Below, piece by piece: positions 8,517 to 27,397 of a stretch of 40,997 bases of DNA (the stretch's first letter is position 1; each line of letters starts with the position of its first letter). The stretch is from positions 1 through 40,997 of IMG/VR virus record IMGVR_UViG_3300009787_000003. One strand, written 5' to 3'. Below the pieces are notes generated by a model. The model was not told the DNA's origin. It worked only from the letters and a program-made list of their open reading frames with translations, and ran no database searches. This DNA is from a virus. The position numbers and the translations under genes are program-made.

Positions 8517-10441
8517 GGTTCCCGTTCCTCCATAATCTGCGCGACAATCGTTTCGAGATCCGACCTGTCGGTTTCCTCGAAAACCAATTCGTCATGCACT
8601 TTGAAAATTGCAAACAACCCGGCTTTTTCAGCGCGCTTTGCTGCCAATGTCATCATGTCGCGAGCAGAGCCTTGAATGCAGTCGGCGGTGATCATGCCGT
8701 GCCATGCAAGGTGCCTGCGGAATTTCTTCCCCTGGTAGGACATAAACGACCATGCAGGACGTTCGTCGCCGTCAGGCGTGTAGGTGGTCGCCTTGCGGGG
8801 CCGGTGATACCAGATTTTCCGCGTTGACGGCAGGCGCATCGTGAGAAAGTCGCCTTCCTTGCGAAATTCTATCCCCTCATAGGAATAGGTTTTCGACATT
8901 TCGCACCAAACCGCGTCAACGCTGGCCTGGAAAAGCCCGTACCAAAATTTAGGGACAAGAGGCGCAACTTCCTTGCGATAGGTGTTGATAGCAAGCTGTG
9001 CCAATTCGAAAGGTTCGTTCGGGGCAAACCGCGCTTGGAAGCCAACCGGGCCAAGGCCGTAACCAGATCCAAGGAACGTGTTCTTTCCGATCTGCCCTTC
9101 CTTGACTTGGATCTTGCGATTGATCGGACGCTTGTAAATCAGGCTGGCGACTTCGGAATACACGTCCAAGCCGTTGTGCATCTGTTCGACGCGATCGTGT
9201 TGCCCAGCGAACGATAGTAGGTTGCGAGCTTCGACCGCCGCGAAGTCACCCGACACTAGCACTTTGCCCTTGGCCGGAATAACGCAAGAGCGCAGCGACG
9301 AAATGATTGCCGAAAAAATATCTTCGCCCCAAAGCTCTTTGATATGGGGCACGTTCCGCGTCAAAATTGCATCGGCCAGAATGTCGGCTGTCAACCCCTG
9401 CCGGTCGCTGATCTCGCCACGGGGATAGTTTTGGATCTGGATCAACCGGCCCGCGTCGCGGCCTGTCCTAGCTCCGTGGTACTGTGTCGCGTACCGCACG
9501 CGCCCATCCTGCCCGGCGCACGTCAGCATGCGCTCCAGTTTCGACACAGAGGCAGAGGCGAGCTTGCGCCGGAGCGTCAAAGCTTTGTGGACATGCGGCG
9601 GAATCGGCTCGCCAAGATCCGCCAGATCAAATTCATCATCGGGATCGAGAATTGCGTCAAGCGTAGCCTTTTTCAGATCGCCCAAACCCACCCCTTGATC
9701 GTTGACCCAATTCAAGATCTTTTCGCGTTGCGTCGGGTTAAGTCCGGTGATCTGTCGGAATTCCTCTGTCATGGGAATTCGTACTTGATCCAGGACATCG
9801 ATGCAGGCGTGCACAAATTCCGTGTCGATCAACAAACCGCGTTGCTGAATTTTCTGGTCCAAGATCCAGACAGATCGTTCATCCGGCCCTAAGCCGCCCG
9901 TCGCGTGAAAAACACCGGCCTGCCCTTCCACGTCGATATTGCAATATTGCCCCAGGCGCTTCATGTTTTCCGGGGTGTGATGCGACCAGCCCCCATCTTT
10001 GTCGGGCCTGCACATTTTCAGCATTAGCGCGTGGCCTTCCATGTCTTTTTTGACCGGAAGCTCCAAAGCGGTAATGACGGCATCGAGGCCAAGCGGAAGC
10101 GCCTTCATGGCGGCTGTTGCCATGGTATCATGCCACCTTTCCGGTGGAAGTGGGGGATATCCCATAGCAAGCATATGGGCCGACCAAATTGCTTGCTCAA
10201 ACCCGGCATTGTGCGCCAGGAACATAACCGTAGGATCTTTAGCAAGCGCCATCAATTCAGGATCTACTTTGAATAGGTCTTTTTCAAAAAGGCATCGTGT
10301 TGGTTGTGGTTTGCGATCAACAAAAACTTTGATCGAACAACACAAAATAAAAGTAGAAAGATCATGGGCATATTTCCAAGCGCCAACCTTTTTGAGATCG
10401 GCGCGGCTTGCCGTTTCATAATCTAATTCTACATACTTCAC
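8450..10441 (-). CDS. family A DNA polymerase with 3'-5' exonuclease domain
   Basis: Exo motifs: VELDYET, HNAGFEQAIW, QYCNIDVEG. Pol motifs: A DFAAVEARNL, B QIGKNTFLGSGYGLG, C FKVHDELVFE. The GTG start overlaps the upstream stop. Confidence 0.95.
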   Translation of the reverse strand: MKYVELDYETASRADLKKVGAWKYAHDLSTFILCCSIKVFVDRKPQPTRCLFEKDLFKVDPELMALAKDPTVMFLAHNAGFEQAIWSAHMLAMGYPPLPPERWHDTMATAAMKALPLGLDAVITALELPVKKDMEGHALMLKMCRPDKDGGWSHHTPENMKRLGQYCNIDVEGQAGVFHATGGLGPDERSVWILDQKIQQRGLLIDTEFVHACIDVLDQVRIPMTEEFRQITGLNPTQREKILNWVNDQGVGLGDLKKATLDAILDPDDEFDLADLGEPIPPHVHKALTLRRKLASASVSKLERMLTCAGQDGRVRYATQYHGARTGRDAGRLIQIQNYPRGEISDRQGLTADILADAILTRNVPHIKELWGEDIFSAIISSLRSCVIPAKGKVLVSGDFAAVEARNLLSFAGQHDRVEQMHNGLDVYSEVASLIYKRPINRKIQVKEGQIGKNTFLGSGYGLGPVGFQARFAPNEPFELAQLAINTYRKEVAPLVPKFWYGLFQASVDAVWCEMSKTYSYEGIEFRKEGDFLTMRLPSTRKIWYHRPRKATTYTPDGDERPAWSFMSYQGKKFRRHLAWHGMITADCIQGSARDMMTLAAKRAEKAGLFAIFKVHDELVFEETDRSDLETIVAQIMEEREPWMIERRLRVKANVEKMNRYRK

Positions 10442-10893
10442 AAGTCATGCTCCATTTGACGCCGGGCAATTCCGACACCTTTAATAAATCTGGTAAATGC
10501 AGCCTTTTTTGCACGTGGACTATTATCTTCGAATTTTCGAATACCGTTCCGATAGGTATCAGCCACATTTCCGGCATGTGTATCATACCGTAAATTATCC
10601 AACGCGCAGTTATTTTTATTATCGTCATTATGACAGCAAATAAAACCTTCCGGTAACGGACCTATAAAAGCCTCTGCAACCAAGGAATGCACAGTTCGTG
10701 TCACTTTTCGCTTACCAACCAAATTCACATTTAGATAACCGCGACCATCAACCGATCGAACAAGTGTGCGACCTTCCAACCAATAATAAGTTTTCCCGTT
10801 CCATTTCCATCGACCAAAACTGCGCACTTGTCCGTTGTCGGAAACTTCATAAAAGCCTTCGAAACCGACCACAGGCAACCACCGTTCGGTCAA
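10438..10893 (-). CDS. NUMOD4/HNH homing endonuclease
   Basis: WLPVVGFEGFYEVSDNGQVRS (NUMOD4-like) followed by GYLNVNLVGKRKVTRTVHSLVAEAFIG...CCHNDDNKNNCALDNLRYDTHAGN (HNH_3-like). The gene is visibly AT-richer than its surroundings. Confidence 0.85.
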   Translation of the reverse strand: MTERWLPVVGFEGFYEVSDNGQVRSFGRWKWNGKTYYWLEGRTLVRSVDGRGYLNVNLVGKRKVTRTVHSLVAEAFIGPLPEGFICCHNDDNKNNCALDNLRYDTHAGNVADTYRNGIRKFEDNSPRAKKAAFTRFIKGVGIARRQMEHDL

Positions 10894-11108
10894 AAGTCAT
10901 ACTCCAAATCCAATTCGGTCGCGATCGGGCCGACCCAGCCATGCACGGGGCGCGAATAGGGCTGTTGATTGATCCCGTAGCAAAAGCATTTGCCGTTCCA
11001 CTCGATCGTCAGAAACGCCTTAATTTCCGGCGCAGCTTCCCAAGTGGACATGACGACATAAAGCCCCGGTTCGGTTGGCTTCCCTGTCTGGAGTGGGATC
11101 TTGCTCAT
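10890..11108 (-). CDS. 72-aa hypothetical protein, paralogue of 11308-11631
   Basis: Start set at the internal ATG MSKIPLQTGKPT, which overlaps the upstream stop (ATGA). It shares W-x-G-x-F/C ... V-[HY]-[GA]-W-[IV]-G-P with the 107-aa neighbour. It ends in EYDF. Confidence 0.6.
   Translation of the reverse strand: MSKIPLQTGKPTEPGLYVVMSTWEAAPEIKAFLTIEWNGKCFCYGINQQPYSRPVHGWVGPIATELDLEYDF
11073..11108. repeat. 36-bp direct repeat, copy A
   Basis: ggttggcttccctgtctggagtgggatcttgctcat differs from copy B (11276-11311) by one mismatch. Confidence 0.9.
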
Positions 11109-11311
11109 TTGATTGATCCTTGCATCCATCGCATAACTGGAATTAATTCTCGCATCGATTTTTGAGATTGAAACTCTCTCCAACCATCTAGGCGAAAAAT
11201 TAAAGCCCAATTAATTAAATACCAAGGCAATCCCGACACTGGATCAATCGGCAAACCTGCGGCTTTTGCGCTTTTGGTTGGCTTCCCTGTCTGGAGCGGG
11301 ATCTTGCTCAT
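11105..11311 (-). CDS. 68-aa ORF inside an AT-rich insertion bracketed by 36-bp direct repeats
   Basis: It has the same first 12 codons (MSKIPLQTGKPT) as the next gene because of the repeat. The remainder is AT-rich with no recognisable motif. ATGA overlaps occur at both ends. Confidence 0.4.
   Translation of the reverse strand: MSKIPLQTGKPTKSAKAAGLPIDPVSGLPWYLINWALIFRLDGWREFQSQKSMRELIPVMRWMQGSIK
11276..11311. repeat. 36-bp direct repeat, copy B
   Basis: ggttggcttccctgtctggagcgggatcttgctcat. Confidence 0.9.
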
Positions 11312-11631
11312 AAATCATATTCCTGTGTTTCGCCGTAGGCCATGCCCAACGCGGCGGATTTTCCAATCTTTCTATCGACCGGTTCGCTGTCCGCGATTAG
11401 GTTGGCCAAACCGGCATAAACGTCCGACGTGGCAGCTGGCCAAAGATCATCAACCAAACCTGTAGGCCACGGCCCGATCCAAGCATAGACAGGCTTTGGG
11501 CAGTCAAAGCGCCCGTTGTGCCATACAGAGATTTCAGGCGTGGCCCAGCGGCGTTGCAAAGGATCTGCGACGAACACGGTATAGCGCCCATCCACGGCAG
11601 GCATTGCGTCCGCTGTTGAAATGATTTCCAT
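11308..11631 (-). CDS. 107-aa hypothetical protein (paralogue of 10890-11108)
   Basis: GGAGGGA lies upstream of the ATG. It contains WHNGRFDCPKPVYAWIGPWP and ends in EYDL, with the stop overlapping the next ATG. Confidence 0.65.
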   Translation of the reverse strand: MEIISTADAMPAVDGRYTVFVADPLQRRWATPEISVWHNGRFDCPKPVYAWIGPWPTGLVDDLWPAATSDVYAGLANLIADSEPVDRKIGKSAALGMAYGETQEYDL

Positions 11632-11695: not shown

Positions 11696-12430
11696 TTAAA
11701 AGGCAATATCGTCGTCGTCGGTCATATCGCCGCTGGGAGCGCCAGCAAGGGGATCGATATCGGAATACCCGGCATAATTGCCGAACACCTGATCGTTGCT
11801 GGGACCGCTGCCGCCGCCCAGCTTTTCACCCTTGCGAATGAAAAGGCAATTCTGGAGATACGCAGTGCAGCCGTCCTTGGCTTCGATCGTCTTGCGACGA
11901 AACGCCTTGAAGGCGACAGACGGCACAGTCCAGGAGCCGGGATAGAACAATTCCTTGTCGGCGGCTGCGCGAATGTGTTCTTCGTTGGCGATATCAACGA
12001 TCTTGCCCGCGACCAGCTTGGCCAATTCAACATCGAATTTGGACGACGCTTGCAGGATGCCGGGATATTTCTCGAACATCACCGCACGGGTTTCCGCTTT
12101 TTCGCGGATTTTCATTGCGGCGTCTTGCGAGATCCCAGGCTTGGTTGCGTTGAATTCCGCAGCCTGCCGAACGCGCTTCGCTGCCGTGGCACCGGACATG
12201 CAGGCCAAGAAATAGTCGCCGGGGTTTGTCCAGTTTCCGGTTTCGCCTTTGATCGCGTTGACCATGATCGGAATGATCGCGTCCAGATCTTCCTTTTCAA
12301 TGCCCCAAGTGCCAGAGAATTTCAATTCCCCCATTTGGCCGTTTTCGAGCTTAGGAGCCGACTTTTTGCCGATCGAGCCATAGAGCGTGCGAGCGGGCTT
12401 GGCGAGCGTGTAACGAAACAATTCAGCCAT
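11696..12430 (-). CDS. single-stranded DNA-binding protein (DUF2815-like) with acidic C-terminal tail
   Basis: It sits between the Cas4-like nuclease and the polymerase, as in DUF2800-DUF2815-PolA modules (from memory). The C-terminus is GDMTDDDDIAF. The ATG at 12430 is preferred over the TTG at 12442. Confidence 0.75.
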   Translation of the reverse strand: MAELFRYTLAKPARTLYGSIGKKSAPKLENGQMGELKFSGTWGIEKEDLDAIIPIMVNAIKGETGNWTNPGDYFLACMSGATAAKRVRQAAEFNATKPGISQDAAMKIREKAETRAVMFEKYPGILQASSKFDVELAKLVAGKIVDIANEEHIRAAADKELFYPGSWTVPSVAFKAFRRKTIEAKDGCTAYLQNCLFIRKGEKLGGGSGPSNDQVFGNYAGYSDIDPLAGAPSGDMTDDDDIAF

Positions 12431-12714: not shown

Positions 12715-13980
12715 CTAAAATCCCTGATCTTCGTAGGATTGGGCAAACGCCTCGAAAACCACGTCGTTTGTGCGCGGTTTGGCTTCCGGGCGCGGATCGG
12801 ATTGCGGGGCGATCGTCAAGCCGCCTGTTTCGGGTTTGTAGCCCCATTCCTTCGCAATTTCCTTGCCACGACTGGACAGCTTTTCGATGCCAGCGGGAGA
12901 CAATTCCTTTTTGGGCGCATAGGCGTTTTGGCCGAAATTCGCCAGCAGCACGGGAAGCGCTCCAGGCTTCCACACGCGGGCGACTTTCTTTTCGACCAGC
13001 TTGGCCGACGTGATGTTGCCGCCTGTCACCTTGCGGGCATAGACGGCTTGCTCCAAGGCCTTCATAAAGCGTCGGGCATAAACTTGCTGCGCATAGAGCG
13101 CGTCCAATTCGTCATCAGGCAACATGGTGACAAAATCCTCCGAAGCATCGGCAAAATCAAGAAATGCCTTTTTCATTTTAGGACAGTGCAAAAGCACCGG
13201 GCAGAATTGGCACCAATCGCCGGGATTGGCGTCCGCGTCGCCGTGATCAGCTGGCCGGTTCATCAATTCGTTCATGCGTGGCAGCAGAACATTGTGGCCC
13301 CAGGCAAGCACGTGGCCCGCGTCGGTTGTCCAGATCTCCGGTTCTTCGAACACGCCGTAAAAATTCGGCTGGACGATCCCCAGGTGAACCGGGAAATCAA
13401 TCGGCAGCGTGCGCCCCGTTTGTTGCGCGTAATGCAGGATCAAGAGGAAGGCATAATACAGAAGCTGTTCGCTGCCAGTCGCCGCCACTCCGACGCCTTC
13501 ACCGTTTTTGTAGTCGATCAGCCACAAGCCGATGGCATTGATCAGCCCGAAGTCCACGGTGCCTTTCAACAGCGGATGGATCTCCGGCATGTGAAAGGTG
13601 CGCTCGATATAGAATTTCGAGCCATCAACCATGCCGACCGTGTTGATCAGACGATTGCACGTGTTCACATAGACGGACACGGCATCAAGCTCAATTTCCT
13701 CCGGAAAGCCAGCGCGGAAACCACCAAACGTCTTGCCGACGTGTTCGTAAGGCTCTGTGCCTGTTTGCAGGCAGGTAGCTCCGACTTCGTGCGCAGCCGT
13801 TCCCAGCGCAGCAAATTCCGAAGGGATCTCGATAAACTTTCCGGCCTGCAATTGCGCACGGTGTTCCAAAAAGGAAAAGGCGCAATTCAAAAACCGAAAT
13901 GCCGATGAACCGCCCAGGGGCGAATGTTCAAGCTCAATCATGGCACAATTCCAGACAGACACGAAAGACATAAAAGACAT
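12715..13980 (-). CDS. Cas4-like PD-(D/E)XK exonuclease (DUF2800-like)
   Basis: HSPLGGSSAFRFLNC near the N-terminus, LIDYKNGEG (D-x-K of the nuclease core) and the C-terminal Cys cluster CQFCPVLLHC. An alternative and perhaps likelier start is the ATG at 13941 (MIELEH). Confidence 0.85.
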   Translation of the reverse strand: MSFMSFVSVWNCAMIELEHSPLGGSSAFRFLNCAFSFLEHRAQLQAGKFIEIPSEFAALGTAAHEVGATCLQTGTEPYEHVGKTFGGFRAGFPEEIELDAVSVYVNTCNRLINTVGMVDGSKFYIERTFHMPEIHPLLKGTVDFGLINAIGLWLIDYKNGEGVGVAATGSEQLLYYAFLLILHYAQQTGRTLPIDFPVHLGIVQPNFYGVFEEPEIWTTDAGHVLAWGHNVLLPRMNELMNRPADHGDADANPGDWCQFCPVLLHCPKMKKAFLDFADASEDFVTMLPDDELDALYAQQVYARRFMKALEQAVYARKVTGGNITSAKLVEKKVARVWKPGALPVLLANFGQNAYAPKKELSPAGIEKLSSRGKEIAKEWGYKPETGGLTIAPQSDPRPEAKPRTNDVVFEAFAQSYEDQGF

Positions 13981-14027: not shown

Positions 14028-14756
14028 TTATCCGGCGTATTCGATCCCGGCAACGCTTTCCAATTCCGACGCGAACGCTTCGCGCTTCTCGGCAGGAATG
14101 TTGCGGCTGTGCGGCGTCAGCCCTTCGGGAACGTGCTTGGCAATTGTTGCTTTCACCTTGTCGGGCGATCCCAGCTTGGTTGCGGCCTGATTGGCGAGCT
14201 TCGACAGATCCGCGTCGGTCCAGGTGCGCGCATTGGCCGTGGCCGGAGCCGCAGCAGCCGCGAACGCCGCGAATTCGTCATCTTCCTCGACCGCAGCCGA
14301 CGATGAACCTGCCGCAGCCGCAGCCGACGCAACGCCAGCCGTTGCCGTCCCACTCGACGGTGAATTTGCCGCAGTCGCAGCGTTTGGGGTGCCAGCGGGC
14401 AAATCTTCGCCGGGACCACGAGGCACACCGGCTTTCAGACGCCACAAGCCCGATTTGACCTTGGTGCCGGTGTGACGGGCGGGATCAAACAGCGTACCGG
14501 CAGCATCACGTTCACCGGCCTGCGCCGGGCCGCTGGCATCCGGTTCAACGCCACCAAGCGTGCTGCCGATCGCGCCCGACGCGCTGTTGTCCAGCAATTC
14601 GACTTCCGGCTTCGAAGCCGCAGCTTCGGCAACGGTCGAACCGCGTGCAACCGCGACACCCGACACGCCGCCCAGCAGCGCATAGACAGCCCCCAGCATG
14701 GAGATCGGAACCGGCACACTCACCAGCAGATCCGAAGCATTGTAAGTCTTGCTCAT
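14028..14756 (-). CDS. Ala-rich hypothetical protein
   Basis: 242-aa ORF whose ATG overlaps the SNF2 stop. It is low complexity and contains FDPARHTGTKVKSGLWRLKAG, a motif shared with 35279-35608. Confidence 0.6.
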   Translation of the reverse strand: MSKTYNASDLLVSVPVPISMLGAVYALLGGVSGVAVARGSTVAEAAASKPEVELLDNSASGAIGSTLGGVEPDASGPAQAGERDAAGTLFDPARHTGTKVKSGLWRLKAGVPRGPGEDLPAGTPNAATAANSPSSGTATAGVASAAAAAGSSSAAVEEDDEFAAFAAAAAPATANARTWTDADLSKLANQAATKLGSPDKVKATIAKHVPEGLTPHSRNIPAEKREAFASELESVAGIEYAG

Positions 14757-16408
14757 TTCACATTTCCTTTTTCGTCAAGAACGCGGTGAATGGTGTTGAG
14801 CTTTTCGAGGCTCTTGACCATGATTTTTTCTGCGATCGAACCAGGGGCAACAAACACGTCTGCCGACACCTGATATTTTTGACCGATGCGATCAAGTCGG
14901 GAAACTGCCTGATCGTTGCGAGCCGGAACCCAATCTGGTTCTCCCAGCCCGCACCGGGAACAAACGGTCTGCAACCCATCGACACCTTCACCGCCTGCCT
15001 GAATGTTGGCGATGAATACCCGGATATTAGGGTTTGAAATAAAATCGTCAATCGCTTTCTGTCTTGCCCCGGCAGATTTGCCGCCGTGGAGCATCACCGT
15101 GCCATATTGAGCCAATTCCTTTTCGTAAATTTCCAGCACCGACAGATGCCAACCGAACAAGACGTATTTTTGTTCCCCGCCGTCCAAAAGATCCGCGACA
15201 TAGCCGCAAACCTGCGGTGCGAGCGCTTCGCCCATCAATCGCCGGGCTTTGGAAATGTGCCCCAAGATCTCAAATTTGGTTGTCGTCTGGATATTTTCGA
15301 TGTCCAGCCCAAGCATGCCTTCGACATCAAGCGCGGCTTTGACTTCGCCGTTTTCCATGCACGACACGATCGCGAACCGGGGAATTTTCATCTGTGTGAA
15401 CACGTCGGCCTTTTCGTGGCGAGCCATGATATTCACCCGTAGCTTGTTCTGCAATTCAAGCTCCAGGGACGTGCTTTCCAGCTTGAAATGCTTGCCTTCG
15501 ATCGTTTTCAGGTTGGCTTGCCGGTTATATTTTTCCTTAAATTGTTCTTCCGTCATAAAATTGATGCTCTCCCAATCGAAGTGCCGGAACAGCACGTAAC
15601 ATTCGCTAGGCCGGTTCAACAGCGGCGTGCCGGTCAAGGCCACGCTCCGATCGCAGTAATGAGCAATGCACTTGACGGTTTCGTGCCCTTGGCGCTGGAA
15701 TTCGCCGCGACTGTTGCCCAGGACGGCCCGCGTCACCAAAGCGTCGGCGGATTTCATCTTGTGCGCCTCGTCACAAATCAGCACGTCCCAGCGCCCGTGC
15801 GCAATCGCCCGCATGATCGCCAGATTGCGCGCCGCCTCGTAGCTGATCACTTGATAATTCGCAGTCGGGTGAATTCCATCCTTGACGCGCAGCATGACCG
15901 AAACCGTCAGGTTCGCGATCGTGGACCATTCTTTGATCCGAATGCCCCATTGGATGCGAACCGACGCCGGAACGATCACAAGCACGCGGGTTGCTTCGAC
16001 ATGGTTGCAAAAGGCGATTGACGTTGGGGTTTTGCCCAAGCCCGGTTCGTCGGCGTCGATCCCGCCGTTTCGAGCTATGAGATAATCGAGCGTGGCTTTC
16101 TGATAATCCCAAAGCTCTTTGCCGGGCGGCAGGCGATGGGTGCCCGTGCCGTTCAACCCCCGTGAAAGATTGATCTCGCGCTTGTAGGGACCAAGATCCG
16201 GATCATTATCATCCGTCAGATCGCAGATCGAATACGGATTGCCTGAAAACAAAATTGCCGTGTGCCGTTGGCTGGCCGACGTGCTGAACGACATTCCACG
16301 ATAAGCCATCGCGCGTGCCACGTCTTTTTTGCTTTTGACGGGCATTTCCAAAACATAGAGGCCGCTTGTCGGGGATCGATAGGCTTTCATTTCCATCAAT
16401 CCGTACAT
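14753..16408 (-). CDS. SNF2-family helicase
   Basis: Motif I DEPGLGKT, motif II LICDEAHKMK, and a C-terminal helicase domain (GGEGVDGLQ...QAVSRLDRIGQ). An alternative start at 16396 would give a TGATG overlap. Confidence 0.9.
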   Translation of the reverse strand: MYGLMEMKAYRSPTSGLYVLEMPVKSKKDVARAMAYRGMSFSTSASQRHTAILFSGNPYSICDLTDDNDPDLGPYKREINLSRGLNGTGTHRLPPGKELWDYQKATLDYLIARNGGIDADEPGLGKTPTSIAFCNHVEATRVLVIVPASVRIQWGIRIKEWSTIANLTVSVMLRVKDGIHPTANYQVISYEAARNLAIMRAIAHGRWDVLICDEAHKMKSADALVTRAVLGNSRGEFQRQGHETVKCIAHYCDRSVALTGTPLLNRPSECYVLFRHFDWESINFMTEEQFKEKYNRQANLKTIEGKHFKLESTSLELELQNKLRVNIMARHEKADVFTQMKIPRFAIVSCMENGEVKAALDVEGMLGLDIENIQTTTKFEILGHISKARRLMGEALAPQVCGYVADLLDGGEQKYVLFGWHLSVLEIYEKELAQYGTVMLHGGKSAGARQKAIDDFISNPNIRVFIANIQAGGEGVDGLQTVCSRCGLGEPDWVPARNDQAVSRLDRIGQKYQVSADVFVAPGSIAEKIMVKSLEKLNTIHRVLDEKGNVK

Positions 16409-17328
16409 GAGCCGCAGCGGTCATCTTTCCCCTCGGGAACACAACTTTGCATATCACCTTCGCAAACCTGATTCCATATCTCGCGCATAGAAGGCCTGTC
16501 TTTCCGAAATCGACCTGGCCGATCTGAAACACGTTCCTCCCACAAGATCCAACGTAGCACTCTTTCAGGTGGAACCGCGCCCGGTCGTAACTTAATCTGA
16601 TTTTCAAAAGCGACAAGCATCATGCGTTCTTTAATTTTCCAAGTGCTTGCCATGAAGCAAAAATCGCAATTTCCAAAAATGCTGTCAATTTTAAGATTAA
16701 AAGGCCCATGAAGGAAAAAATTGTCAACATGGTCGATTGTGGCTCCCGCGTCAAACATTGGAAAAACGCCCATACCGCCCGTATCAAAACCACGGATTTC
16801 ATCTTGCAACCAACGCTTATCGCACCGGGATTTTTCGTCTGCCCGATAACCGATTGCGGCATAATATTGTGTCGGCCAGCCTAATGCATCCCGCACAAAC
16901 CGATGCACGGTCTTAATTTTCAAATTCGCTGTGCATGTTCGCTGCGCAGGATTTGGCAGCGGTCTTACCCCAATGGTGCCGTCGCGCCGCTTCAATGTTC
17001 TGGTCAAGAAATCTTCAAAAATTTCCCCATTACGTTTCATTGATGCAAAATCAACCCTGCGATATTTTTTCGGCTTGTCCATATCCCATTCGAGAATATT
17101 TAATCCCAAACCAAAATAATTGTCCAACTTTTGCAGGAAATCATAAGTTTCCGGACGTTCAAGGCTAGTGTTTTCAAATACAAAAACCCAATCGGATTTT
17201 GGTTTACCATTGGCCTCCAAAATATGTGCCATTTGATACGCGCTCGATCGACCGCCAGAAACCCCGATTGTCATAAGATCGGGAAGGTTCCGGTAGGCTT
17301 CTAGATTATTGTATTGGAAATTTTTCAC
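16396..17328 (-). CDS. PAPS-reductase-like PP-loop ATP pyrophosphatase family protein
   Basis: PP-loop IGVSGGRSSAY near the N-terminus, GNCDFCF, and a C-terminal Cys cluster CEGDMQSCVPEGKDDRCGSC. I do not see a canonical CysH ECGLH motif. The gene is visibly AT-richer than its neighbours. Confidence 0.75.
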   Translation of the reverse strand: MKNFQYNNLEAYRNLPDLMTIGVSGGRSSAYQMAHILEANGKPKSDWVFVFENTSLERPETYDFLQKLDNYFGLGLNILEWDMDKPKKYRRVDFASMKRNGEIFEDFLTRTLKRRDGTIGVRPLPNPAQRTCTANLKIKTVHRFVRDALGWPTQYYAAIGYRADEKSRCDKRWLQDEIRGFDTGGMGVFPMFDAGATIDHVDNFFLHGPFNLKIDSIFGNCDFCFMASTWKIKERMMLVAFENQIKLRPGAVPPERVLRWILWEERVSDRPGRFRKDRPSMREIWNQVCEGDMQSCVPEGKDDRCGSCTD

Positions 17329-17675
17329 AAATCATACTCCAGCACAGGTTCGGTACGGGGCTTCGGCAGATTGTCAACGAGCCGTGCAGCAGCGCGCACC
17401 TGATCGGCCAGCCGCGTCACAAGCGCGTCGTGCACTTCCACATCCAAGTGATAGGCATCGAGCATCAATTTAATTTGTTCGATCGAAAAGCCTCCGAATT
17501 GCGCTGCGGCGATGATCGCAGCCCGTTCCATCTGTTCTGCGGTATAGCGCCGCACCCCAGCATCGGAACGCGCCACGTCCCCAAGCAAACCTTCCGATTC
17601 CCAAAACCTAGCACCCCTTGCTGACGTGCAGCCAGCCATGCAGAATTCTGCCAATGTGTGAATTGCTTCGGTCAT
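17325..17675 (-). CDS. MerR-family HTH transcriptional regulator
   Basis: LAEFCMAGCTSARGARFWESEGLLGDVARSDAGVRRYTAEQMERAAII resembles the MerR HTH and wing. The start is set at MTEAIH, where the upstream micro-ORF stop overlaps (ATGA). It ends in EYDL. Confidence 0.75.
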   Translation of the reverse strand: MTEAIHTLAEFCMAGCTSARGARFWESEGLLGDVARSDAGVRRYTAEQMERAAIIAAAQFGGFSIEQIKLMLDAYHLDVEVHDALVTRLADQVRAAARLVDNLPKPRTEPVLEYDL

Positions 17676-17824
17676 TTCGAACAATCCTTGATTGCGCCAA
17701 TAAGGCAAAACATGTCAGTTTTTGGCAATGCACATTTTGGCAATGCGCAAGCCGGTTGCCTATACATACCAATCGCCACGATCAGCAGTAATAGCCCGAC
17801 TGCGATATAGGCAATAGATCTCAT
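17672..17824 (-). CDS. 50-aa micro-protein with N-terminal TM segment
   Basis: Below the track cutoff, with ATGA overlaps at both ends. Translation: MRSIAYIAVGLLLLIVAIGMYRQPACALPKCALPKTDMFCLIGAIKDCSK. The duplicated CALPK comes from a 15-bp tandem repeat. Confidence 0.4.
   Translation of the reverse strand: MRSIAYIAVGLLLLIVAIGMYRQPACALPKCALPKTDMFCLIGAIKDCSK
17720..17749. repeat. 15-bp tandem repeat x2 (ttttggcaatgcRca)
   Basis: Read directly: two adjacent units with one mismatch. Confidence 0.85.
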
Positions 17825-18270
17825 TTGAACATCTCAATCTCAAATTGTTCTTGCGTCAATTCACGATCGCGCCATTTATGGATTTCTTCGACAATGAAAA
17901 ATTCCTGCAAAGGTGGACGATGCTGCAAAGGATGCAAAAAAGTCTGTGAGCCGTTGGCATTTTTCAGTACCGGCAGATTAGCAAATTTCAATTCGTTCGC
18001 CAAGCGCGCACTAGATTTTTGAGGCAGCAAAATCGGCTGAAATCCCATCGTTAGTGCCAAAACGGGAAACAATGGCACCAATTCCGCAGCGGTATAGAAT
18101 TTGCGAGCTTTCAGGTACGGAAGCCAAGCGCTTACGGCGTCGGCGTGGCGGTGACGTGGATTTTGCATTGCAAACTTGGCGATCTCTGTTTTCAAGATCC
18201 GCACAAGGCCCGGCTGGTTTCCCTGCGCCCGCATCTGCGCCACGATCTTTGCCGTCGTTTCCACGCTCAT
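17821..18270 (-). CDS. 149-aa hypothetical protein
   Basis: The ATG overlaps the primase-helicase stop (ATGA). No motif recognised. Confidence 0.6.
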   Translation of the reverse strand: MSVETTAKIVAQMRAQGNQPGLVRILKTEIAKFAMQNPRHRHADAVSAWLPYLKARKFYTAAELVPLFPVLALTMGFQPILLPQKSSARLANELKFANLPVLKNANGSQTFLHPLQHRPPLQEFFIVEEIHKWRDRELTQEQFEIEMFK

Positions 18271-20216
18271 AGATCATACTCCGTTTCGCTGTCGTCATCT
18301 TCGCCCGGTTCATCTTCGCCCGTTTCTTCGTCATCGTCTTTGATCAAATTCCATTGGTTGCCCGTGCGCAAAATTTTCAATTCCTCTGTCGAATTCAAAA
18401 CCTGCAACACCTTGCGAGCCTCCACGCCCACGCGAACGGCGATCGTCTGCGCCAGGATCGAGCCACCCGCAGAGCCACCCAATTCGTTCAGAACGTCCGC
18501 GACTTCGTTGAACGTCGCCCAGGATATAACCGGCCCATCGCCTTTTTTCTTGTCAGCCGGGCCTAGCACCTTTTCGGTTTTCCGCAGCACGATCGATTGA
18601 CCGAAAACCTTGGTTTCAAAATTCGTAACGGCATCCTCTACGTCAGCTTCCTTTTGCTTCCGTACAGTCATTTGCATCCCGCCTGCCATTTTCTTAACTT
18701 CGATCGCAAAATCTGCGTTGGCAAAATAGACGCTAGATCCACGTGCACCTTTTGACGCATCCTTGCCGACGTGATCGACCAGCAGCACACAGCATTGATA
18801 GTGATCGCGCATCTGTTCCAGAAATTGAATAACCAGGGAGCCTTCCTTGGACGCATTTTCGTCAATTCCCGTGATCAGCCGCGACTTGGTATCGATGACG
18901 ATCAGCCGGGGCCGGGCGTTGGCTTCCGCCAAATCTTCCTTTACCCATTTCCACAGATCGGTTTCAGTATAGAGCGGCACGCGGGGCATAAAAAATAGCC
19001 GGTGATCATTCCTGAATTCAATTTCATGTGCTTCCATCCATGCCGGGAACCGAAGCCGGGCCATACCAATCGGACTTTCGCCGGCGAAGAAAACCACGTC
19101 TTGCTTTTCGGCGCACGGGTTTTCCCATTGGCCCGGAATTCCGAAGGCCAGGGTTAGGGACAGATCCAGGGCGACAAAGGATTTGTAAGAGCCGGATTGA
19201 CCGTAAAGCATCCCAACGCCGATCTCGGGCAACATGCCGGGCAAGAGCCATTTAGGATCTTCGACACTATCCGCAAAATCATTGATAAACTGCAATCGAG
19301 GCCGGGATCGTGTGGGCGCTTCCGGTTCTGTCGGCGTGTCCATCCCGGCGAATTTTTCAAACGCTTCGGCGTTCGATTGGTGCCCTTCCGCGCCTGTCTT
19401 GGTATTCGTTCCCGACTTGTAAATGCTTTCAATCTTGAATTGCAGATCCTCCGGTTCCCATGGCGGAATGCAATGCGGGTTCCAGATCTCTTGCATCAAT
19501 TCAAAGCACGTATAAGGGGAAATTCCTTTCGACAGGACCGCAGCAGCCGTGGCGACAGTTTTGTTGTCGCCGCCTTGACCTTCGATCGCGACAGAACCGG
19601 CCTTCACAAACCCGTTCAAGATATCGCGCGCCGTTTGGATATTGCGCGGTAGATCCTTGCCGATTTCTTTTTCTAACCCTTGGACTTCCTTCGCCTTGCG
19701 CTCTGGTATCAGTGCCAAGACCGCAGCCGGATAAGGCGCGATCTCGCCGGCATTCAGGATCTCATATGTGCCCTTGTCGGTTCGCGAGCCGGGCAGCACG
19801 ACATAACCGCCAGAAACGATTTGCCCAGCCCGCTTGATCCCGCCACGCGTGTCAATGCCTTCGGCAATCCGTGACGCCGTGCTAGGGCCTTCCCCGCGAA
19901 AATAGACATGCAAACCACCGCGTGGCGTCCGAACGGTAAAAGCGCGAGCCGCAGCCGACTTGATTTCAGGATCACGCGCTAAAAGCGCAGCCCACCAATC
20001 AAGGCCCCCAGGATCGACATCAAGCACAAAGATATTAGATAGGCCACAAGCCAACCCCCAGTTGAAATCTGGGTTAATCCTTGACCAGTGTGCAATTTGT
20101 TTCGGGTCATTAGATGCCTCTTTCCATCCGGTCGCCGTGGCGGGCAGTTTACTGCCCGGCTGGCACGGGAACACATAAGGCTTGACCGCCTGCAATTGAT
20201 ACGGTAACTCAAGCAC
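18267..20216 (-). CDS. bifunctional primase-polymerase / RecA-type (AAA_25-like) replicative helicase
   Basis: N-terminal Prim-Pol signature (PATATGWKEAS...NIFVLDVDPGG). The C-terminal P-loop is MLYGQSGSYKS with Walker B CCVLLVDHVGK. The acidic tail is DDDEETGEDEPGEDDDSETEYDL. GTG start with GGAGGG upstream. Confidence 0.9.
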   Translation of the reverse strand: MLELPYQLQAVKPYVFPCQPGSKLPATATGWKEASNDPKQIAHWSRINPDFNWGLACGLSNIFVLDVDPGGLDWWAALLARDPEIKSAAARAFTVRTPRGGLHVYFRGEGPSTASRIAEGIDTRGGIKRAGQIVSGGYVVLPGSRTDKGTYEILNAGEIAPYPAAVLALIPERKAKEVQGLEKEIGKDLPRNIQTARDILNGFVKAGSVAIEGQGGDNKTVATAAAVLSKGISPYTCFELMQEIWNPHCIPPWEPEDLQFKIESIYKSGTNTKTGAEGHQSNAEAFEKFAGMDTPTEPEAPTRSRPRLQFINDFADSVEDPKWLLPGMLPEIGVGMLYGQSGSYKSFVALDLSLTLAFGIPGQWENPCAEKQDVVFFAGESPIGMARLRFPAWMEAHEIEFRNDHRLFFMPRVPLYTETDLWKWVKEDLAEANARPRLIVIDTKSRLITGIDENASKEGSLVIQFLEQMRDHYQCCVLLVDHVGKDASKGARGSSVYFANADFAIEVKKMAGGMQMTVRKQKEADVEDAVTNFETKVFGQSIVLRKTEKVLGPADKKKGDGPVISWATFNEVADVLNELGGSAGGSILAQTIAVRVGVEARKVLQVLNSTEELKILRTGNQWNLIKDDDEETGEDEPGEDDDSETEYDL

Positions 20217-21353: not shown

Positions 21354-21383
21354 ATTACTTGCTCCGTTGAAAGCTGATAGGGT

Positions 21384-21398
21384 CTTACGTAACGTAAG
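21384..21398. promoter_or_regulatory. perfect palindrome CTTACGT-A-ACGTAAG (operator-like)
   Basis: 7-bp arms with a 1-nt spacer cannot form an RNA hairpin, so a DNA-level binding site is more likely. It matches 23399-23413 at 13 of 15 positions. Confidence 0.45.
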
Positions 21399-21403: not shown

Positions 21404-21967
21404 TTATAGGTCAAGCCCCGGATTAAAATAAAGGGTTCTCTTTCGCCCGCTTTTTTGCTCCGTTCGCCAGCATCCGGCAAATTCAGGATCTTTGCGGCAA
21501 TTCAGCAAAGCCCGTGCAAATTTGGTTAGGAAAGCATGCCGACCGGCTGGCAAAATCCTGATACCTGCCCGCACGCCTAGAAAAGCGTAGGGGACAGGTT
21601 CGCCGGGCAAAACAGATTTGACCCATGCAATGACCGCTTTGACGCCTTTAGGATCATCGTCGGCGGCCAAATTGACAGCTTTGACGAGATCCAAAGGCAT
21701 CGCCTCAATATCATAATGCCCTAGCGCTTTGACCTGATTGCGCGCTTGGCTTTGCCGGTTTTTCAGCTCCGCATAAATTTTCGGTTTTTCGATCAGCAAA
21801 AGCAATTGCTCCACGCTTAAATCCTGATTGCGCACCAAGTTTGCGCGCATTGCTGGCGCAAGCGGATGACCATCGCCTTCGTCACAGATCAAGAGGCCAT
21901 CGCGAACCAAGCGTTTGAGCTTGCCCAAGCTGATTTGATATTTTTCGTTTATCTCGAAAATATTCAT
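21404..21967 (-). CDS. 187-aa hypothetical protein, possible N-terminal HTH
   Basis: The start MNIFEINEKYQISLGKLKRLVRDGLL overlaps the previous stop (TAATG). It ends in GLDL. The HTH call is by eye only. Confidence 0.6.
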   Translation of the reverse strand: MNIFEINEKYQISLGKLKRLVRDGLLICDEGDGHPLAPAMRANLVRNQDLSVEQLLLLIEKPKIYAELKNRQSQARNQVKALGHYDIEAMPLDLVKAVNLAADDDPKGVKAVIAWVKSVLPGEPVPYAFLGVRAGIRILPAGRHAFLTKFARALLNCRKDPEFAGCWRTEQKSGRKRTLYFNPGLDL

Positions 21968-24278: not shown

Positions 24279-25115
24279 ATGACCGTGGAAGCACAAAAAC
24301 TGACGCTGGACGATATCCAGTCAAAAATCGAAAGCGCGATTTACCTGCAACCGACCGGCACTTTGACGATCGCCATCCTGACGCTGACGAACGGCTATAC
24401 CGTGACGGGCGAAAGCGCGTGCCTCAACCCCGCCGACTTCGACGCCGACATGGGTAAGAAAATTGCCTACGAAAACGCCGAAAAGAAAATTTGGATGCTC
24501 GAAGGCTATCTCCGCAAGGAAGCCGCGTTCCAGTCCAGCCAGCCCAACGCGGACGAAACACCTGCGCCGTTGCCGGTTTCCGGCAAAAGCACTGAAAGTG
24601 TTTCGTCAGCAGGACAAACCACGGTCTCCGTCGATCTGCCGACAGTCGCCGTACCGCCGCATGACGACATGGTGCCCTACCTTGGCGTCAAAATCGTGAA
24701 CGCCAAGCCGATGCCGCGTGGCATCTATGCCCAATTGCGTGGCTGGGATCTCCCGACCGACGAAGATCCTGCCGACGCGGGCTATCTGGTCGAATACACC
24801 GACGCCCAGCGCCCCAACGTGTCCGGGTTCGCGGGTTATGTGTCCTGGTCGCCTGCCGACGTGTTCATGGCTGCATACAATCCTCTGCCTGCCCCTGCGC
24901 CCCAGGCCGACACGGGAAACGTGTCCGTTTCGACTGGATCAACGCCCGCTGCTTCCAATGGCCCAACCGCTGGTGGCGTTGACTTGGGAAACGCTCAATC
25001 TGTTGGTGGTGCTGGCACCCCGACGCCCCCCACATCGGGTTCGACGGACGCAATTTCTGCTCCGACTGCCTCGCCCTCATCCACGATTGACAGCGGCACC
25101 ACAACCGGCGCATAA
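24279..25115 (+). CDS. N4 gp49 / Sf6 gp66-like family protein with Ser/Thr/Pro/Gly-rich tail
   Basis: TIAILTLTNGYTVTGESACLNPADFDADMGKKIAYENAEKKIWMLEGY matches my recollection of the gp49/gp66 family. A second conserved block is KPMPRGIYAQLRGWDLPTDEDPADAGYLVEY...YVSWSPADVF. Confidence 0.75.
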   Translation: MTVEAQKLTLDDIQSKIESAIYLQPTGTLTIAILTLTNGYTVTGESACLNPADFDADMGKKIAYENAEKKIWMLEGYLRKEAAFQSSQPNADETPAPLPVSGKSTESVSSAGQTTVSVDLPTVAVPPHDDMVPYLGVKIVNAKPMPRGIYAQLRGWDLPTDEDPADAGYLVEYTDAQRPNVSGFAGYVSWSPADVFMAAYNPLPAPAPQADTGNVSVSTGSTPAASNGPTAGGVDLGNAQSVGGAGTPTPPTSGSTDAISAPTASPSSTIDSGTTTGA

Positions 25116-25141
25116 CGCTGATCCTCCCCCAAGGCGAAAGG

Positions 25142-25178
25142 CCCGGTTTCATTGTTCCACAATGGGACCGGGTTTTTT
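25142..25178 (+). terminator. rho-independent terminator candidate
   Basis: cccggtttcattg-ttcca-caatgggaccggg followed by tttttt. Confidence 0.6.
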
Positions 25179-25231
25179 GTTGCCTGCGATCGGAGCCGTT
25201 GATACTGTTGATAGTGAAATTGGAGGGAATA

Positions 25232-25408
25232 ATGAGCGACGTTGAATATGTCCCAGCACGGGTGAAAGAAATCAAGGCAAAGATCGCAGCCCGCGAGGGC
25301 AAGTCCGAATATAAGGAAAATGTAAAATTTCTGAAAGCGGAATTGGCGCGCATTACAAACACGCCGCTAAATTCCACGGACACGGCCAACGTCCACGGTG
25401 CAGAATGA
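25232..25408 (+). CDS. 58-aa hypothetical protein
   Basis: The start MSDVEYVPARVKEIK is preceded by TGGAGGGAATA. The stop overlaps the next ATG (ATGA). Confidence 0.55.
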   Translation: MSDVEYVPARVKEIKAKIAAREGKSEYKENVKFLKAELARITNTPLNSTDTANVHGAE

Positions 25409-26202
25409 AACAACTAGGCAATACGCGAAAAGCCTACGCCTCAAAAGGCGACGATGCTACATTGACCCGATGGATTAAAGTCAATCACGCACGCGACAAA
25501 CCCAATCACGGCAAAGCTGGACCGCCGCGCGCAGACATGGCTTATATTCAACAAGGGCGCACAAAATTTCCATCCCGCGTGCTGCGGCCTGATCAGATGA
25601 AATCTATTCTTGTATCCGGTCACAGCAACGTAAAAATTGGCCGTGATGTTCGCAAAGGCAAGCTGAAAGGTTACTGGATCTATACGCTGTCGCTCGAAGA
25701 ACGCAAAACCTGTCCGCGCACCTGTCGCCATTGGGTTTCGTGCTATGGATCGTCAATGCCGTTCGCCAAGCGCGTCGATCACACCGACCCAACATTCTTG
25801 CCGCGCCTTGAAGCCGAAATAAAAGATCTGTGCCGTAAAAGATACGGCGTGTTGATCCGGCTTCATGCCCTTGGCGATTTCTATGACAGCGCGTACGTGG
25901 CATTTTGGGATAGAATGCTGCGCGAGCATAAAAACCTTTCCATATTCGGCTATACTGCTTGGGGTAACAAAACAACGATCGGCTGGACCTTGCATATGTT
26001 GCGTTCTGAATGGGGAACGCGCGCCATGATCCGACATAGCGACGCGCCGTATTCGACAAACTCGACAATCGGGATCAGTGATGTTACGTCGTGCCCGAAA
26101 GACAGCTTTGTTTGTCCGGAACAGACCGGCAAGACGCGATGCTGTGCAACCTGCGGCCTGTGTTGGACAACAAAAAAGCGCGTGGCCTTTTTGGAGCATT
26201 GA
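25405..26202 (+). CDS. Cys-rich protein, possible metal/Fe-S binding (GP88-like family, from memory)
   Basis: 265 aa with RKTCPRTCRHWVSCYG (C-x3-C-x5-C) and C-terminal CPEQTGKTRCCATCGLCW. The family assignment is unverified. Confidence 0.65.
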   Translation: MKQLGNTRKAYASKGDDATLTRWIKVNHARDKPNHGKAGPPRADMAYIQQGRTKFPSRVLRPDQMKSILVSGHSNVKIGRDVRKGKLKGYWIYTLSLEERKTCPRTCRHWVSCYGSSMPFAKRVDHTDPTFLPRLEAEIKDLCRKRYGVLIRLHALGDFYDSAYVAFWDRMLREHKNLSIFGYTAWGNKTTIGWTLHMLRSEWGTRAMIRHSDAPYSTNSTIGISDVTSCPKDSFVCPEQTGKTRCCATCGLCWTTKKRVAFLEH

Positions 26203-26204
26203 TC

Positions 26205-26474
26205 ATGGCAAAGGCATTTGGCGGTGGGAGCTTCGGCAAGGCACCCAAGGTTAGCGGCAAAGTCGGCTCCGGCGTTCCAGGAGACTTTTCACGGGCACGC
26301 ATGACCGAGAGCCAAGGGCAGAAAGTCGCCAACGCTCCAGGGACGCCCATTGCCGCGTCCAAAACCCCATCACCCGGCAACGTGTCCGTCGCAACCGGCG
26401 ACAACATGGTGATGCCGGTTGACCATCCCAGCGCACAGACGACGCGCCGGGTTACAAAGGGAGGCACGTTGTGA
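26205..26474 (+). CDS. 89-aa Gly/Pro/Lys-rich hypothetical protein
   Basis: The start MAKAFGGGSFGK lies 2 nt after the previous stop. Confidence 0.55.
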   Translation: MAKAFGGGSFGKAPKVSGKVGSGVPGDFSRARMTESQGQKVANAPGTPIAASKTPSPGNVSVATGDNMVMPVDHPSAQTTRRVTKGGTL

Positions 26475-26593
26475 AGAAACCTGTCAAAAAGAAAATGGCG
26501 AAAAAGCCCGAAGCCAAAAAGGCTGCAAAAAAGATGATGCCCAGCATGGGCACCAAACAGGACGGGAAGAAAACGCCTCCGGGAGGCTGGTAA
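26471..26593 (+). CDS. 40-aa Lys-rich micro-protein
   Basis: Below the track cutoff. The GTG overlaps the previous stop (GTGA). Translation: MKKPVKKKMAKKPEAKKAAKKMMPSMGTKQDGKKTPPGGW (14 Lys). An alternative ATG lies at codon 9. Confidence 0.4.
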   Translation: MKKPVKKKMAKKPEAKKAAKKMMPSMGTKQDGKKTPPGGW

Positions 26594-26594
26594 A

Positions 26595-26786
26595 ATGGCC
26601 AAGACACCCAAAAAAGGCGCAACCAAGAAAACCGGCAAATTCGACGGCAAATCGAACAAGCTGGGGCACGGCGGGCGCGCTGCGCAGCTTCGGGCCAAGG
26701 GTGTTCCGGGCGCTGTGATTGGGGCCATTGCGCGGTCCAAAGGGGCCGCTCCAGGCGGTCCAAATTACCATGGCAAACGGAAATAA
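26595..26786 (+). CDS. 63-aa basic protein
   Basis: MAKTPKKGATKKTGKFDGKSNKLGHGGRAAQLRAKGVPGAVIGAIARSKG..., with GGGAGG upstream. Confidence 0.6.
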   Translation: MAKTPKKGATKKTGKFDGKSNKLGHGGRAAQLRAKGVPGAVIGAIARSKGAAPGGPNYHGKRK

Positions 26787-26794
26787 TCTGTGGC

Positions 26795-27154
26795 ATGGAA
26801 GGCGCTATGTCAGATGATACGCGCCTTCCAGTTGTTCGAGCGATCCAGGGCTTGCCCGCGATCAGCGCAGAACAATACCAGCATGTCGGTCGCTACGCGG
26901 GGGCGGCTGTCATGCACTGTTTTGAGGCGATCGGCGGTGCAGAGCGCATGCGGGCTTGGGCCGATGGCAATCCGACAGATTTTTTCACCAAGCTATTCCC
27001 CAAAATGATTTCGCGCTCGCAGCAAGTGGACATTTCCGCAACGCTGTCGATCGATGATGCAATCGAACGGCTGGAACGCCAAAATTTGATCCAGGCCGCA
27101 GATTACACCGAAGTCATGCCGGGCGTGCAAGATGCGGAATTTTATGATTTGTAA
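26795..27154 (+). CDS. hypothetical protein; positional candidate for the small terminase subunit
   Basis: 119-aa ORF upstream of the large terminase. No diagnostic motif. An alternative start at 26807 is preceded by GGAAGG. It ends in FYDL. Confidence 0.45.
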   Translation: MEGAMSDDTRLPVVRAIQGLPAISAEQYQHVGRYAGAAVMHCFEAIGGAERMRAWADGNPTDFFTKLFPKMISRSQQVDISATLSIDDAIERLERQNLIQAADYTEVMPGVQDAEFYDL

Positions 27155-27175
27155 CCGCTGGACGGAGAACCCGGC

Positions 27176-27397
27176 ATGTATATTTCACCACACGGGAAAG
27201 CTGCGGGGCTTTCCGAACGCCTATTGAAATTCGCTGATACGTTATCGAAAAATAAATCGTATCCATGGCTCGGTACCGGCATCATAGACGACTTGCGAGC
27301 GGCAGCAGCCGTGATCGACGGTCGCGCCGTCCCGCCAACGATGTTGGAAGAAATGGAAGCCGAACAGCCCAGCTTGAAATTGGAGTACGACCTATGA
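27176..27397 (+). CDS. 73-aa hypothetical protein
   Basis: GGAGAA lies upstream. It ends in EYDL, with the stop overlapping the next ATG. Confidence 0.6.
   Translation: MYISPHGKAAGLSERLLKFADTLSKNKSYPWLGTGIIDDLRAAAAVIDGRAVPPTMLEEMEAEQPSLKLEYDL

Follow-up and report, generated by a model that had tools for sequence, protein, structure and literature searches.

Why should proteins as different as a primase-helicase, a MerR-type regulator and several small proteins of one virus end in the same four residues? The question is raised by a 40,997-nucleotide (nt) stretch of viral DNA (IMG/VR virus record IMGVR_UViG_3300009787_000003, positions 1 to 40,997; hereafter the window), in which several genes stop at E-Y-D-L or a close variant. 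The DNA that encodes these residues often reads as a Shine–Dalgarno (SD) sequence placed ahead of an overlapping start codon. A reading made from the letters alone (the sequence-only reading) had offered two explanations, either an RNA-level translational-coupling cassette copied around the genome or a protein-level short linear motif, and had leaned towards the second. Codon-by-codon comparison with related loci shows that the motif is a short C-terminal peptide, [E/Q]-[Y/F/H/L/W]-D-L-COOH, under protein-level purifying selection in more than 40 unrelated families. The same comparison shows that, where the next start overlaps the stop, the Glu codon GAG and the G before it act as the SD of the following gene, at a spacing of 8 nt.

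A near-identity DNA search against phage records gave no match to the window, no cultured or close deposited phage relative was found, and single-protein locus searches found nothing; the loci of relatives were gathered by profile-based searches. The primase-helicase has hundreds of metagenomic homologues, many of them on contigs of 42–46 kb. Our related set comprises about 34 loci around the primase (43–93% identity, 1056 called genes). The comparison set consists of 6 more distant loci (30–33% identity) and about 75 outgroup loci from distant phages and bacteria (1753 genes). About 75 further loci were gathered around the terminase, and genes in every locus were called with a simple codon-usage caller. 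The phage family that carries the motif is uncultured, with genomes of about 41–46 kb and a P22-type portal. Metagenome-assembled genome (MAG) assignments for the phage contigs conflict, naming Massilia, Erythrobacter, Sphingomonadales and Chthoniobacterales.

The strict motif, [EDQ][YFHW]D[LFIMV], ends 169 of the 1056 genes in the related loci (hereafter tagged genes), compared with 0 of 1753 in the distant and outgroup loci; for a relaxed form, [YFHWL]D[LFIMV], the counts are 222 and 2. The strict ends include 96 cases of EYDL and 49 of EFDL. Placement at the terminus is nearly exclusive, with E[YF]DL found 145 times at protein ends and twice within 170,322 internal residues. At least 40 sequence-unrelated protein clusters are tagged in these loci, and the tagged share is about 16–21% of non-structural genes. 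When IMG/VR was scanned for the junction cassette, multi-copy contigs came solely from this phage family; elsewhere there were single matches, in about the number expected by chance.

Particular proteins carry the motif with great constancy. All 34 orthologues of the primase-helicase in the related loci end [ED]-[YFHL]-D-L, and 109 of the 120 best database homologues of the primase (about 50% identical to the window protein) end E[YFH]DL. The motif is present in 32/32 orthologues of the MerR-type protein, in 40/40 members of cluster 0 (a family of 75 amino acids (aa) that includes the 107-aa protein of the window) and in 7/7 members of cluster 22 (which includes the 73-aa protein at 27176–27397). 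In cluster 11 (window 26795–27154), 14/14 members end [QEFTD]YDL or EFDL, and in cluster 8 (window 21404–21967; proteins of ~190 aa) 22 of 24 orthologues end [LF]DL. A head-module family (window 35279–35608) ends ...RPAPxx[LHFY]DL in about 20 loci. The tag is also found on HNH endonucleases, on C5 and Dam-like DNA methyltransferases, on two portals and on two small proteins encoded just upstream of the terminase genes; downstream of the terminase, the strict motif ends 5 of 322 structural-region proteins. The choice between Y and F tracks the protein family (z = 10.9) and, once family is accounted for, tracks the genome weakly (z = 2.65).

Conservation within these ends is that of a peptide. 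Asp and Leu are conserved at 92–100% in every family, and positions −5 to −14 mostly at less than 50%. The 96 EYDL ends are encoded by 29 of the 48 possible 12-mers; among the 169 motif genes, Asp is encoded by GAC and GAT 89 and 80 times, in the same proportion as genome-wide, and every one of the six Leu codons is used. At position −3, 118 of 120 primase homologues have Y, F or H, and N, D, S or C, which are single-base changes from TAT, never occurs among the 120. Across 110 junctions in relatives, information content has a period of 3 and is close to 0 one base before the Glu codon and after the stop; GCGTG follows the stop in 2 of these junctions. Because no sequence is conserved outside the 16 nt of the junction, the cassette is not a copied element, as the sequence-only reading had suggested it might be, and the match of 20 of 22 nt that it had pointed out between 18262–18283 and 27382–27403 has no extra meaning.

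The motif also follows the upstream protein and persists where no start overlaps its stop. Clusters 1, 3 and 0, all 100% tagged, are followed by 15, 15 and 22 different neighbour families, respectively; the genes downstream of the MerR-type protein belong to 15 different families, and a tagged gene precedes the DNA polymerase in 3 of 12 cases. Clusters 8, 11 and 14 and the head-module family keep a ΦDL end (Φ being hydrophobic or aromatic) with TAA or TAG stops and gaps of 20–160 nt. Stops in cluster 11 are mostly TAA with gaps of about 21 nt, gaps in cluster 14 are about 150 nt, no cluster 8 member overlaps the next gene and the head-module genes nearly all stop at TAA with no overlap. Independent gene calls supplied with three of the contigs give the same non-overlapping ends, and two cluster 8 members with an extra segment of ~55 residues retain the terminal FDL. 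In an AlphaFold2 model of the helicase, residues 628–649 have a predicted local distance difference test score (pLDDT) below 50, so this tail is predicted to be disordered; the motif-bearing tails in general are variable and probably disordered. The sequence-only reading had said that conservation of the tetrapeptide at non-overlapping gene ends would refute a purely RNA-level explanation, and by that criterion the conservation of the motif at such ends refutes it. Its preference for the peptide is borne out by retention at these ends, by the use of all synonymous codons and by the link to the upstream protein.

A second constraint, on the nucleotides, operates where genes overlap. A 4-nt overlap with the next start is found in 65% of motif genes (110/169) compared with 20% of untagged genes, and a TGA stop in 88% compared with 61%. 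At these overlapped motif junctions GAG encodes the Glu in 82% of cases (36% in the genome), and a G stands before the Glu codon in 92%; the codon at −5 has a final G although the residue that it encodes varies. With gaps of more than 20 nt, the shares are 40% for GAG, close to the genomic 36%, and 51% for the G before it. Of the 169 motif genes, 151 have E and 10 have Q at position −4, with Q in 8 of the 35 [EQ][YF]DL ends for which the gap is more than 20 nt and no SD is needed; in the xLDL subgroup this position varies freely. CTA and TTA, Leu codons that are rare in the genome (7% and 4%), account for 39% of overlapped motif ends, an enrichment explained by the ATG that they create. We also found 162 overlapped junctions without the motif, at which GGAG at a spacing of 8 is the commonest arrangement and Glu occupies position −4 in 40%. 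Part of the Glu in the motif is therefore a general by-product of the SD geometry of this family, as the motif-less junctions also favour it.

Two comparisons among relatives had been proposed by the sequence-only reading, one for EYDL without an overlapping start and the other for GGAG-N8-start without the peptide. Both arrangements exist, the first in several families and the second as the commonest form at the motif-less junctions. What remains of the RNA-level proposal is that the GGAG-N8-start geometry is selected, solely where the start overlaps the stop; the peptide is not its mere by-product. Two other nucleotide-level candidates were dropped. Extended SD pairing of GGAGUAUGAU with the 3′ tail of 16S rRNA is at odds with the period-3 variability and with persistence of the motif in the absence of a downstream start, and TATGAT as a −10 promoter element has the wrong spacing to the start and a conservation that follows the reading frame.

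A C5-methyltransferase gene with two fully overlapping frames, present in relatives and not in the window, bears on the same point. It is found in L011 (14332–15514), L026 (4089–5259) and L001 (8296–9421), and also in L019, L025, L028, L086, L291, L005, L010 and L284. In eight loci the homology-supported methyltransferase frame (frame A) stops at the TGA inside the cassette (GGA GTA TGA; the protein ends ...GV), and the +1 frame (frame B) ends EYDL 7 nt later, a layout that could at first be mistaken for an RNA-level constraint. The +1 frame is open over 84–99% of the gene in all members, compared with a median of 22% in other long genes. Both frames match PHROG DNA methyltransferases, frame A with E values of 1e-69 to 1e-73 and frame B with 1e-20 to 1e-40. 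Frame A contains what we take to be C5 motifs I, IV, VI, VIII and X, and frame B SGWPTP repeats and a sequence that presumably resembles motif IX; the most variable codon position shifts from frame A to frame B mid-gene. L025 keeps the EYDL frame with a TAA stop and with the start moved by 3 nt. In L005 and L010 both frames are tagged, ending ...IYDL/...KYDL and then, 17 nt on, ...EFDL/...QYDL.

The simplest reading of this arrangement is that nested overlapping frames would yield the two polypeptides of a split methyltransferase, with the tag on the +1-frame product; double recoding is the alternative. Read in the first way, the case supports selection on the peptide. A prfB-like +1 frameshift at GUA-UGA was dropped as a candidate, given poor tRNA re-pairing and the wrong SD spacing.

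Within the window itself, all nine C-termini named by the sequence-only reading, including the variants EYDF, EHDL, FYDL, GLDL and KLDL, were recovered on reading back the DNA (Table 1). Its six GGAG/GGAA junctions with overlapping starts are also present: the degenerate pattern GGARYWYGAYYTNTGA (GGAR-YWY-GAY-YTN-TGA) has 6 matches, compared with a mean of 0.01 in dinucleotide-preserving shuffles, of which 0 of 100 reach 6. At 6/6 junctions an open reading frame (ORF) runs on downstream from an ATG, GTG or TTG made by the last codon together with TG. The count of unrelated proteins needs a correction, as the EYDF protein and the 107-aa protein are paralogues in the same protein cluster, so that the window holds fewer fully independent tagged families than had been stated. 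For the EYDF protein, a length of 72 aa (ATG at 11108) is more likely than 106 aa; its end is the sole case of TTT (Phe) at position −1 among the 169 motif genes. Among homologues of the HNH endonuclease, one in L030 ends EYDL and a third is without the motif.

Table 1. Tagged gene ends of the window, with the stop and the gene that follows
Sequence	Positions	Strand	Gene end	Stop and following gene
GGAGTATGATCTATGA	18267..18282	-	E-Y-D-L and stop of PrimPol/AAA_25 primase-helicase (18267-20216)	GGAG 8 nt ahead of ATG (18270-18268), start of gene 17821-18270
GGAGTATGATTTGTGA	17325..17340	-	E-Y-D-L, MerR-type helix-turn-helix (HTH) protein (17325-17675, or to 17708)	GTG at 17328, start of PAPS-reductase-like gene (16396-17328)
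GGAATATGATTTATGA	11308..11323	-	E-Y-D-L, 107-aa protein (11308-11631)	ATG at 11311, start of 68-aa ORF (11105-11311)
GGAGTATGACTTTTGA	10890..10905	-	E-Y-D-F, 72-aa paralogue (10890-11108) of the 107-aa protein	TTG at 10893, start of HNH gene
GGAGCATGACTTGTGA	10438..10453	-	E-H-D-L, NUMOD4/HNH_3 endonuclease (10438-10893)	GTG at 10441, start of family A DNA polymerase (8450-10441)
GGAGTACGACCTATGA	27382..27397	+	E-Y-D-L, 73-aa protein (27176-27397)	ATG at 27394, start of 60-aa gene just ahead of the terminase region
TTTTATGATTTGTAA	27140..27154	+	F-Y-D-L, 119-aa protein (26795-27154)	TAA stop, no GGAG, 21-nt gap; next gene with its own SD
GGGCTTGACCTATAA	21404..21418	-	G-L-D-L, 187-aa protein with HTH-like N-terminus (21404-21967)	TAA stop, 50-nt gap
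AAGCTCGATCTTTGA	35594..35608	+	K-L-D-L, 109-aa head-module protein (35279-35608)	23-nt gap after the gene end (35608)

Domain scans of the window identify genes for a P22-type portal, scaffolding protein, major head protein and head-closure proteins, an SLT-domain virion protein, a lysozyme and a terminase. The replication module consists of a family A DNA polymerase, an Enc34-type single-stranded DNA-binding protein (SSB), a DUF2800/PD-(D/E)XK nuclease, an SNF2 helicase, a PAPS-reductase-like protein and the primase-helicase. The 937-aa SLT transglycosylase virion protein (2147–4960, + strand) ends ...YIGDL, and its stop is followed at once by the start of the next gene. In the gap that follows the 187-aa protein lies an imperfect palindrome, CTTACGTTACGTAAG (21381–21395), which may be an operator or a terminator; in many relatives, similar ACGT-rich palindromes come after the orthologous gene.

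Among the tagged proteins for which a function can be recognised, most act on DNA, namely the primase-helicase, HTH regulators, HNH endonucleases and DNA methyltransferases. We consider that the gene end is dual-coded, with a selected C-terminal peptide and a conditional SD, and that the peptide probably serves as a docking tag for a common partner; we give this reading a probability of roughly two in three. The free C-terminal peptide would gather many proteins on one partner, tool-belt fashion, and this partner could be a host replisome-associated hub, such as the sliding clamp, or a phage protein. A more far-reaching version treats E-Φ-D-L-COOH as a proteome-wide address tag, borne by about one-sixth of non-structural proteins from more than 40 families, including both polypeptides of the apparently split cytosine methyltransferase, for a single undescribed receptor. 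We hold this version tentatively, at somewhat short of an even chance.

Several observations weigh against docking on a common partner. No receptor was identified for the tag, and Pfam and PHROGs scans of the window proteins did not find a clamp, PDZ, TPR or other peptide-binding domain. None of the 1056 proteins of the family contains the canonical clamp-binding motif, Q[LFIMVAP][DSEN][LM]F. The DNA polymerase bears no tag, many tagged proteins are small and have no assigned function, and one head-module protein and two portals are tagged, which is a poor fit to a replisome hub. Translational coupling may also help to keep the motif, given the excess of overlaps among tagged genes. To these points we add that the AlphaFold2 model (pLDDT 92) of the 149-aa protein encoded directly after the primase-helicase (17821–18270, − strand) is without a PDB match or a convincing fold match. 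This protein, which 33 of 34 family loci encode and the distant group lacks, is the only family-specific core protein that is untagged. Its sole viral structural match is weak (E = 0.027), winged-helix-like and within a primase/helicase protein, and the modelled fold may be new.

Other explanations fit less well than the docking tag. The strongest of them makes the tag a C-terminal stability signal, either a degron by which a host or phage protease would clear early proteins at a set time or an end that blocks tail-specific proteolysis. Bacterial C-terminal degrons need the extreme C-terminal position, as this motif does, and the tag occurs on a wide range of unrelated proteins, for the most part early or non-structural ones, among them regulators and an HNH nuclease that could be toxic. 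We nevertheless judge a stability signal unlikely. Acidic residues near the C-terminus reportedly stabilise proteins in E. coli and do not destabilise them, the primase-helicase is needed throughout replication, and the tag extends to the head-module protein and some portals. No protease gene was found among the window proteins scanned.

Those same virion proteins would be accounted for by a capsid-targeting or packaging signal for co-injection, comparable to the cargo-loading peptides of encapsulins or the capsid targeting sequence of T4. Such a signal would cover the conserved small head-module protein, the two portals and the two small pre-terminase proteins, and DNA methyltransferases and nucleases are plausible co-injected anti-restriction proteins, for which the Dar proteins of phage P1 offer a comparison. 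The scale of the tagging makes this quite improbable. About 20% of the non-structural genes would be too many, and their products too large, for a capsid holding ~41 kb; the cargo would include a 649-aa helicase that is expected to be hexameric; and most structural proteins are untagged, as the low count downstream of the terminase shows.

A pure translational-coupling cassette, in which SD, spacer and a start laid over the stop are what is selected and the peptide is a by-product, has in its favour the excess of 4-nt overlaps and TGA stops in motif genes, GGAG 8 nt upstream at most overlapped junctions and a certain enrichment of T-ending codons at −3 in those junctions. It is a very improbable account of the peptide, however, as in several families the motif survives TAA or TAG stops and long gaps, where the GGAG signal is gone; conservation has a period of 3 with synonymous sites free to vary; and the motif tracks the upstream protein and not the downstream gene. 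The 162 motif-less overlapped junctions function without it, and it is absent from distant phages that share the gene order and have many ATGA overlaps. Least credible is a module-boundary linker that promotes recombination between gene cassettes and spreads with acquired genes, for although mobile or accessory genes (HNH, methyltransferases) are tagged in some genomes and not in others, and a 39-nt duplication in the window starts exactly at one junction, the DNA identity of the junctions is no greater than the peptide and SD demand, EYDL is written with many different 12-mers between flanks that are not conserved, and non-overlapping copies retain the peptide alone.

The duplication is a direct repeat (11070–11108 and 11273–11311; 95% identical, 203 nt apart) that copies the first 13 codons (MSKIPLQTGKPT) of the 72-aa gene and gives rise to the 68-aa ORF (11105–11311) that separates this tagged gene from its tagged paralogue. 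The event, a duplication or an insertion, appears to be recent and to start precisely at the junction cassette.

Shared C-terminal tails have a clear counterpart in phage T4, in which the gp43 polymerase, gp55 and gp33 carry interchangeable hydrophobic-acidic C-termini that dock on the gp45 sliding clamp (PMC2988020); the statement in the sequence-only reading that no phage system of this kind was known is therefore too strong. The likeness lies in shared docking tails borne on divergent linkers (PMC2988020). The differences are that T4 has three tagged proteins and its own clamp, whereas the family described here has more than 40 tagged families and an untagged polymerase, and that the motif here is another four-residue sequence, ending in Leu. 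A T4-type clamp tool-belt would come with a phage-encoded clamp and clamp loader; no clamp family was matched by the window proteins scanned against Pfam or PHROGs.

A comparison with ligands of the bacterial beta clamp gives a mixed picture. The bacterial motif is QL[SD]LF or QLxLxL, and the motifs of the phage Mu activator MuC/Mor are QPDLF and QHDLF (PMC12867686). Here too a short terminal motif with an x-D-L core is found on DNA-acting proteins, and the QFDL and QYDL variants, which occur where no SD is needed, resemble the clamp motif minus its final Phe. The tag, however, mostly has Glu and not Gln at position 1 (E 151/169, Q 10/169), has an aromatic residue before D-L and ends D-L-COOH, with no terminal L-F or L-x-L. 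As Gln at position 1 and the terminal L-F pair are defining features of the clamp-binding motif, we do not class the tag as one.

T7 gp4 and gp2.5 and bacterial SSB (D-D-D-I-P-F) also use free acidic-hydrophobic C-terminal peptides for replisome contacts. There, a tail found on one or two hub proteins is bound by many partners; in the family described here the tail is instead spread over many proteins, it ends in Leu and it is acidic in a minority of cases. The long acidic tail of the primase-helicase, which the sequence-only reading had likened to the aromatic-ended tails of T7, is real in the window protein and its closest relatives; the acidic run is confined to these (more than 84% identity), and the tails of most homologues read ...WxIPxxEYDL.

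At the nucleotide level, the nearest likeness is the Start-Associated Sequence (SAS) of Cluster K mycobacteriophages, a 13-bp element, GGGATAGGAGCCC, that contains an SD (PMC3203893). The SAS is likewise repeated within one phage family, just upstream of the starts of non-structural genes, and sometimes includes the upstream stop (PMC3203893). It differs in being conserved as DNA and tied to the downstream start, whereas the tag is conserved as a peptide, tracks the upstream protein, varies at synonymous sites and persists without a downstream start. Class II PDZ ligands, with the pattern hydrophobic-x-hydrophobic-COOH, include the E-F-Y-A and E-Y-Y-V ends of syndecan and neurexin. The tag has the same pattern, E-[FY]-x-hydrophobic-COOH, with a free carboxylate; the known examples are eukaryotic, however, no PDZ domain was found in the proteins of the window and bacterial PDZ domains are mostly periplasmic. 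Our literature search found no description of an E-Y-D-L tag in phages.

Conserved tails of other kinds are encoded in a group of replication genes on the − strand of the window (11696–12430, 12715–13980 and 14028–14756). Family-wide, the C-terminus of the Enc34-type SSB is an acidic run followed by [IVA][PA][FW] (DDDDIAF in the window), the DUF2800 nuclease ends x-G-[FW] and a 242-aa protein ends E[FY]AG. Several distinct tail codes may coexist, as these replication proteins have conserved tails of their own. In a distant phage without EYDL (L038), three unrelated proteins (6329–7489, 12889–13383 and 17177–17788) end EE[TQ]W and the SSB ends DDEIPF; C-terminal tags that are each specific to one family may be more widespread.

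Shared C-terminal docking tails and SDs embedded in upstream genes were both known before; what appears to be new is the scale, the specific motif, its restriction to one uncultured phage family and the separable dual coding. The last of these is a clean natural case of a single 12-nt stretch under two constraints, as a peptide and as a ribosome-binding site; the occurrence of overlapping and non-overlapping gene ends in the same family lets the two be separated. In practical terms, the tag gives a handle for finding the hub, flags uncharacterised proteins that are functionally linked and can guide gene callers on stops and starts. Shared docking tails are otherwise known for a handful of replisome proteins (the T4 clamp ligands, SSB and T7), whereas in this abundant, uncultured family the tag ends a large share of the non-structural proteome. 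It points to a central hub that would organise replication, DNA modification, regulation and possibly packaging; if a single receptor does bind the tag, no tool-belt or sorting system so far described in phage would approach this one in size.

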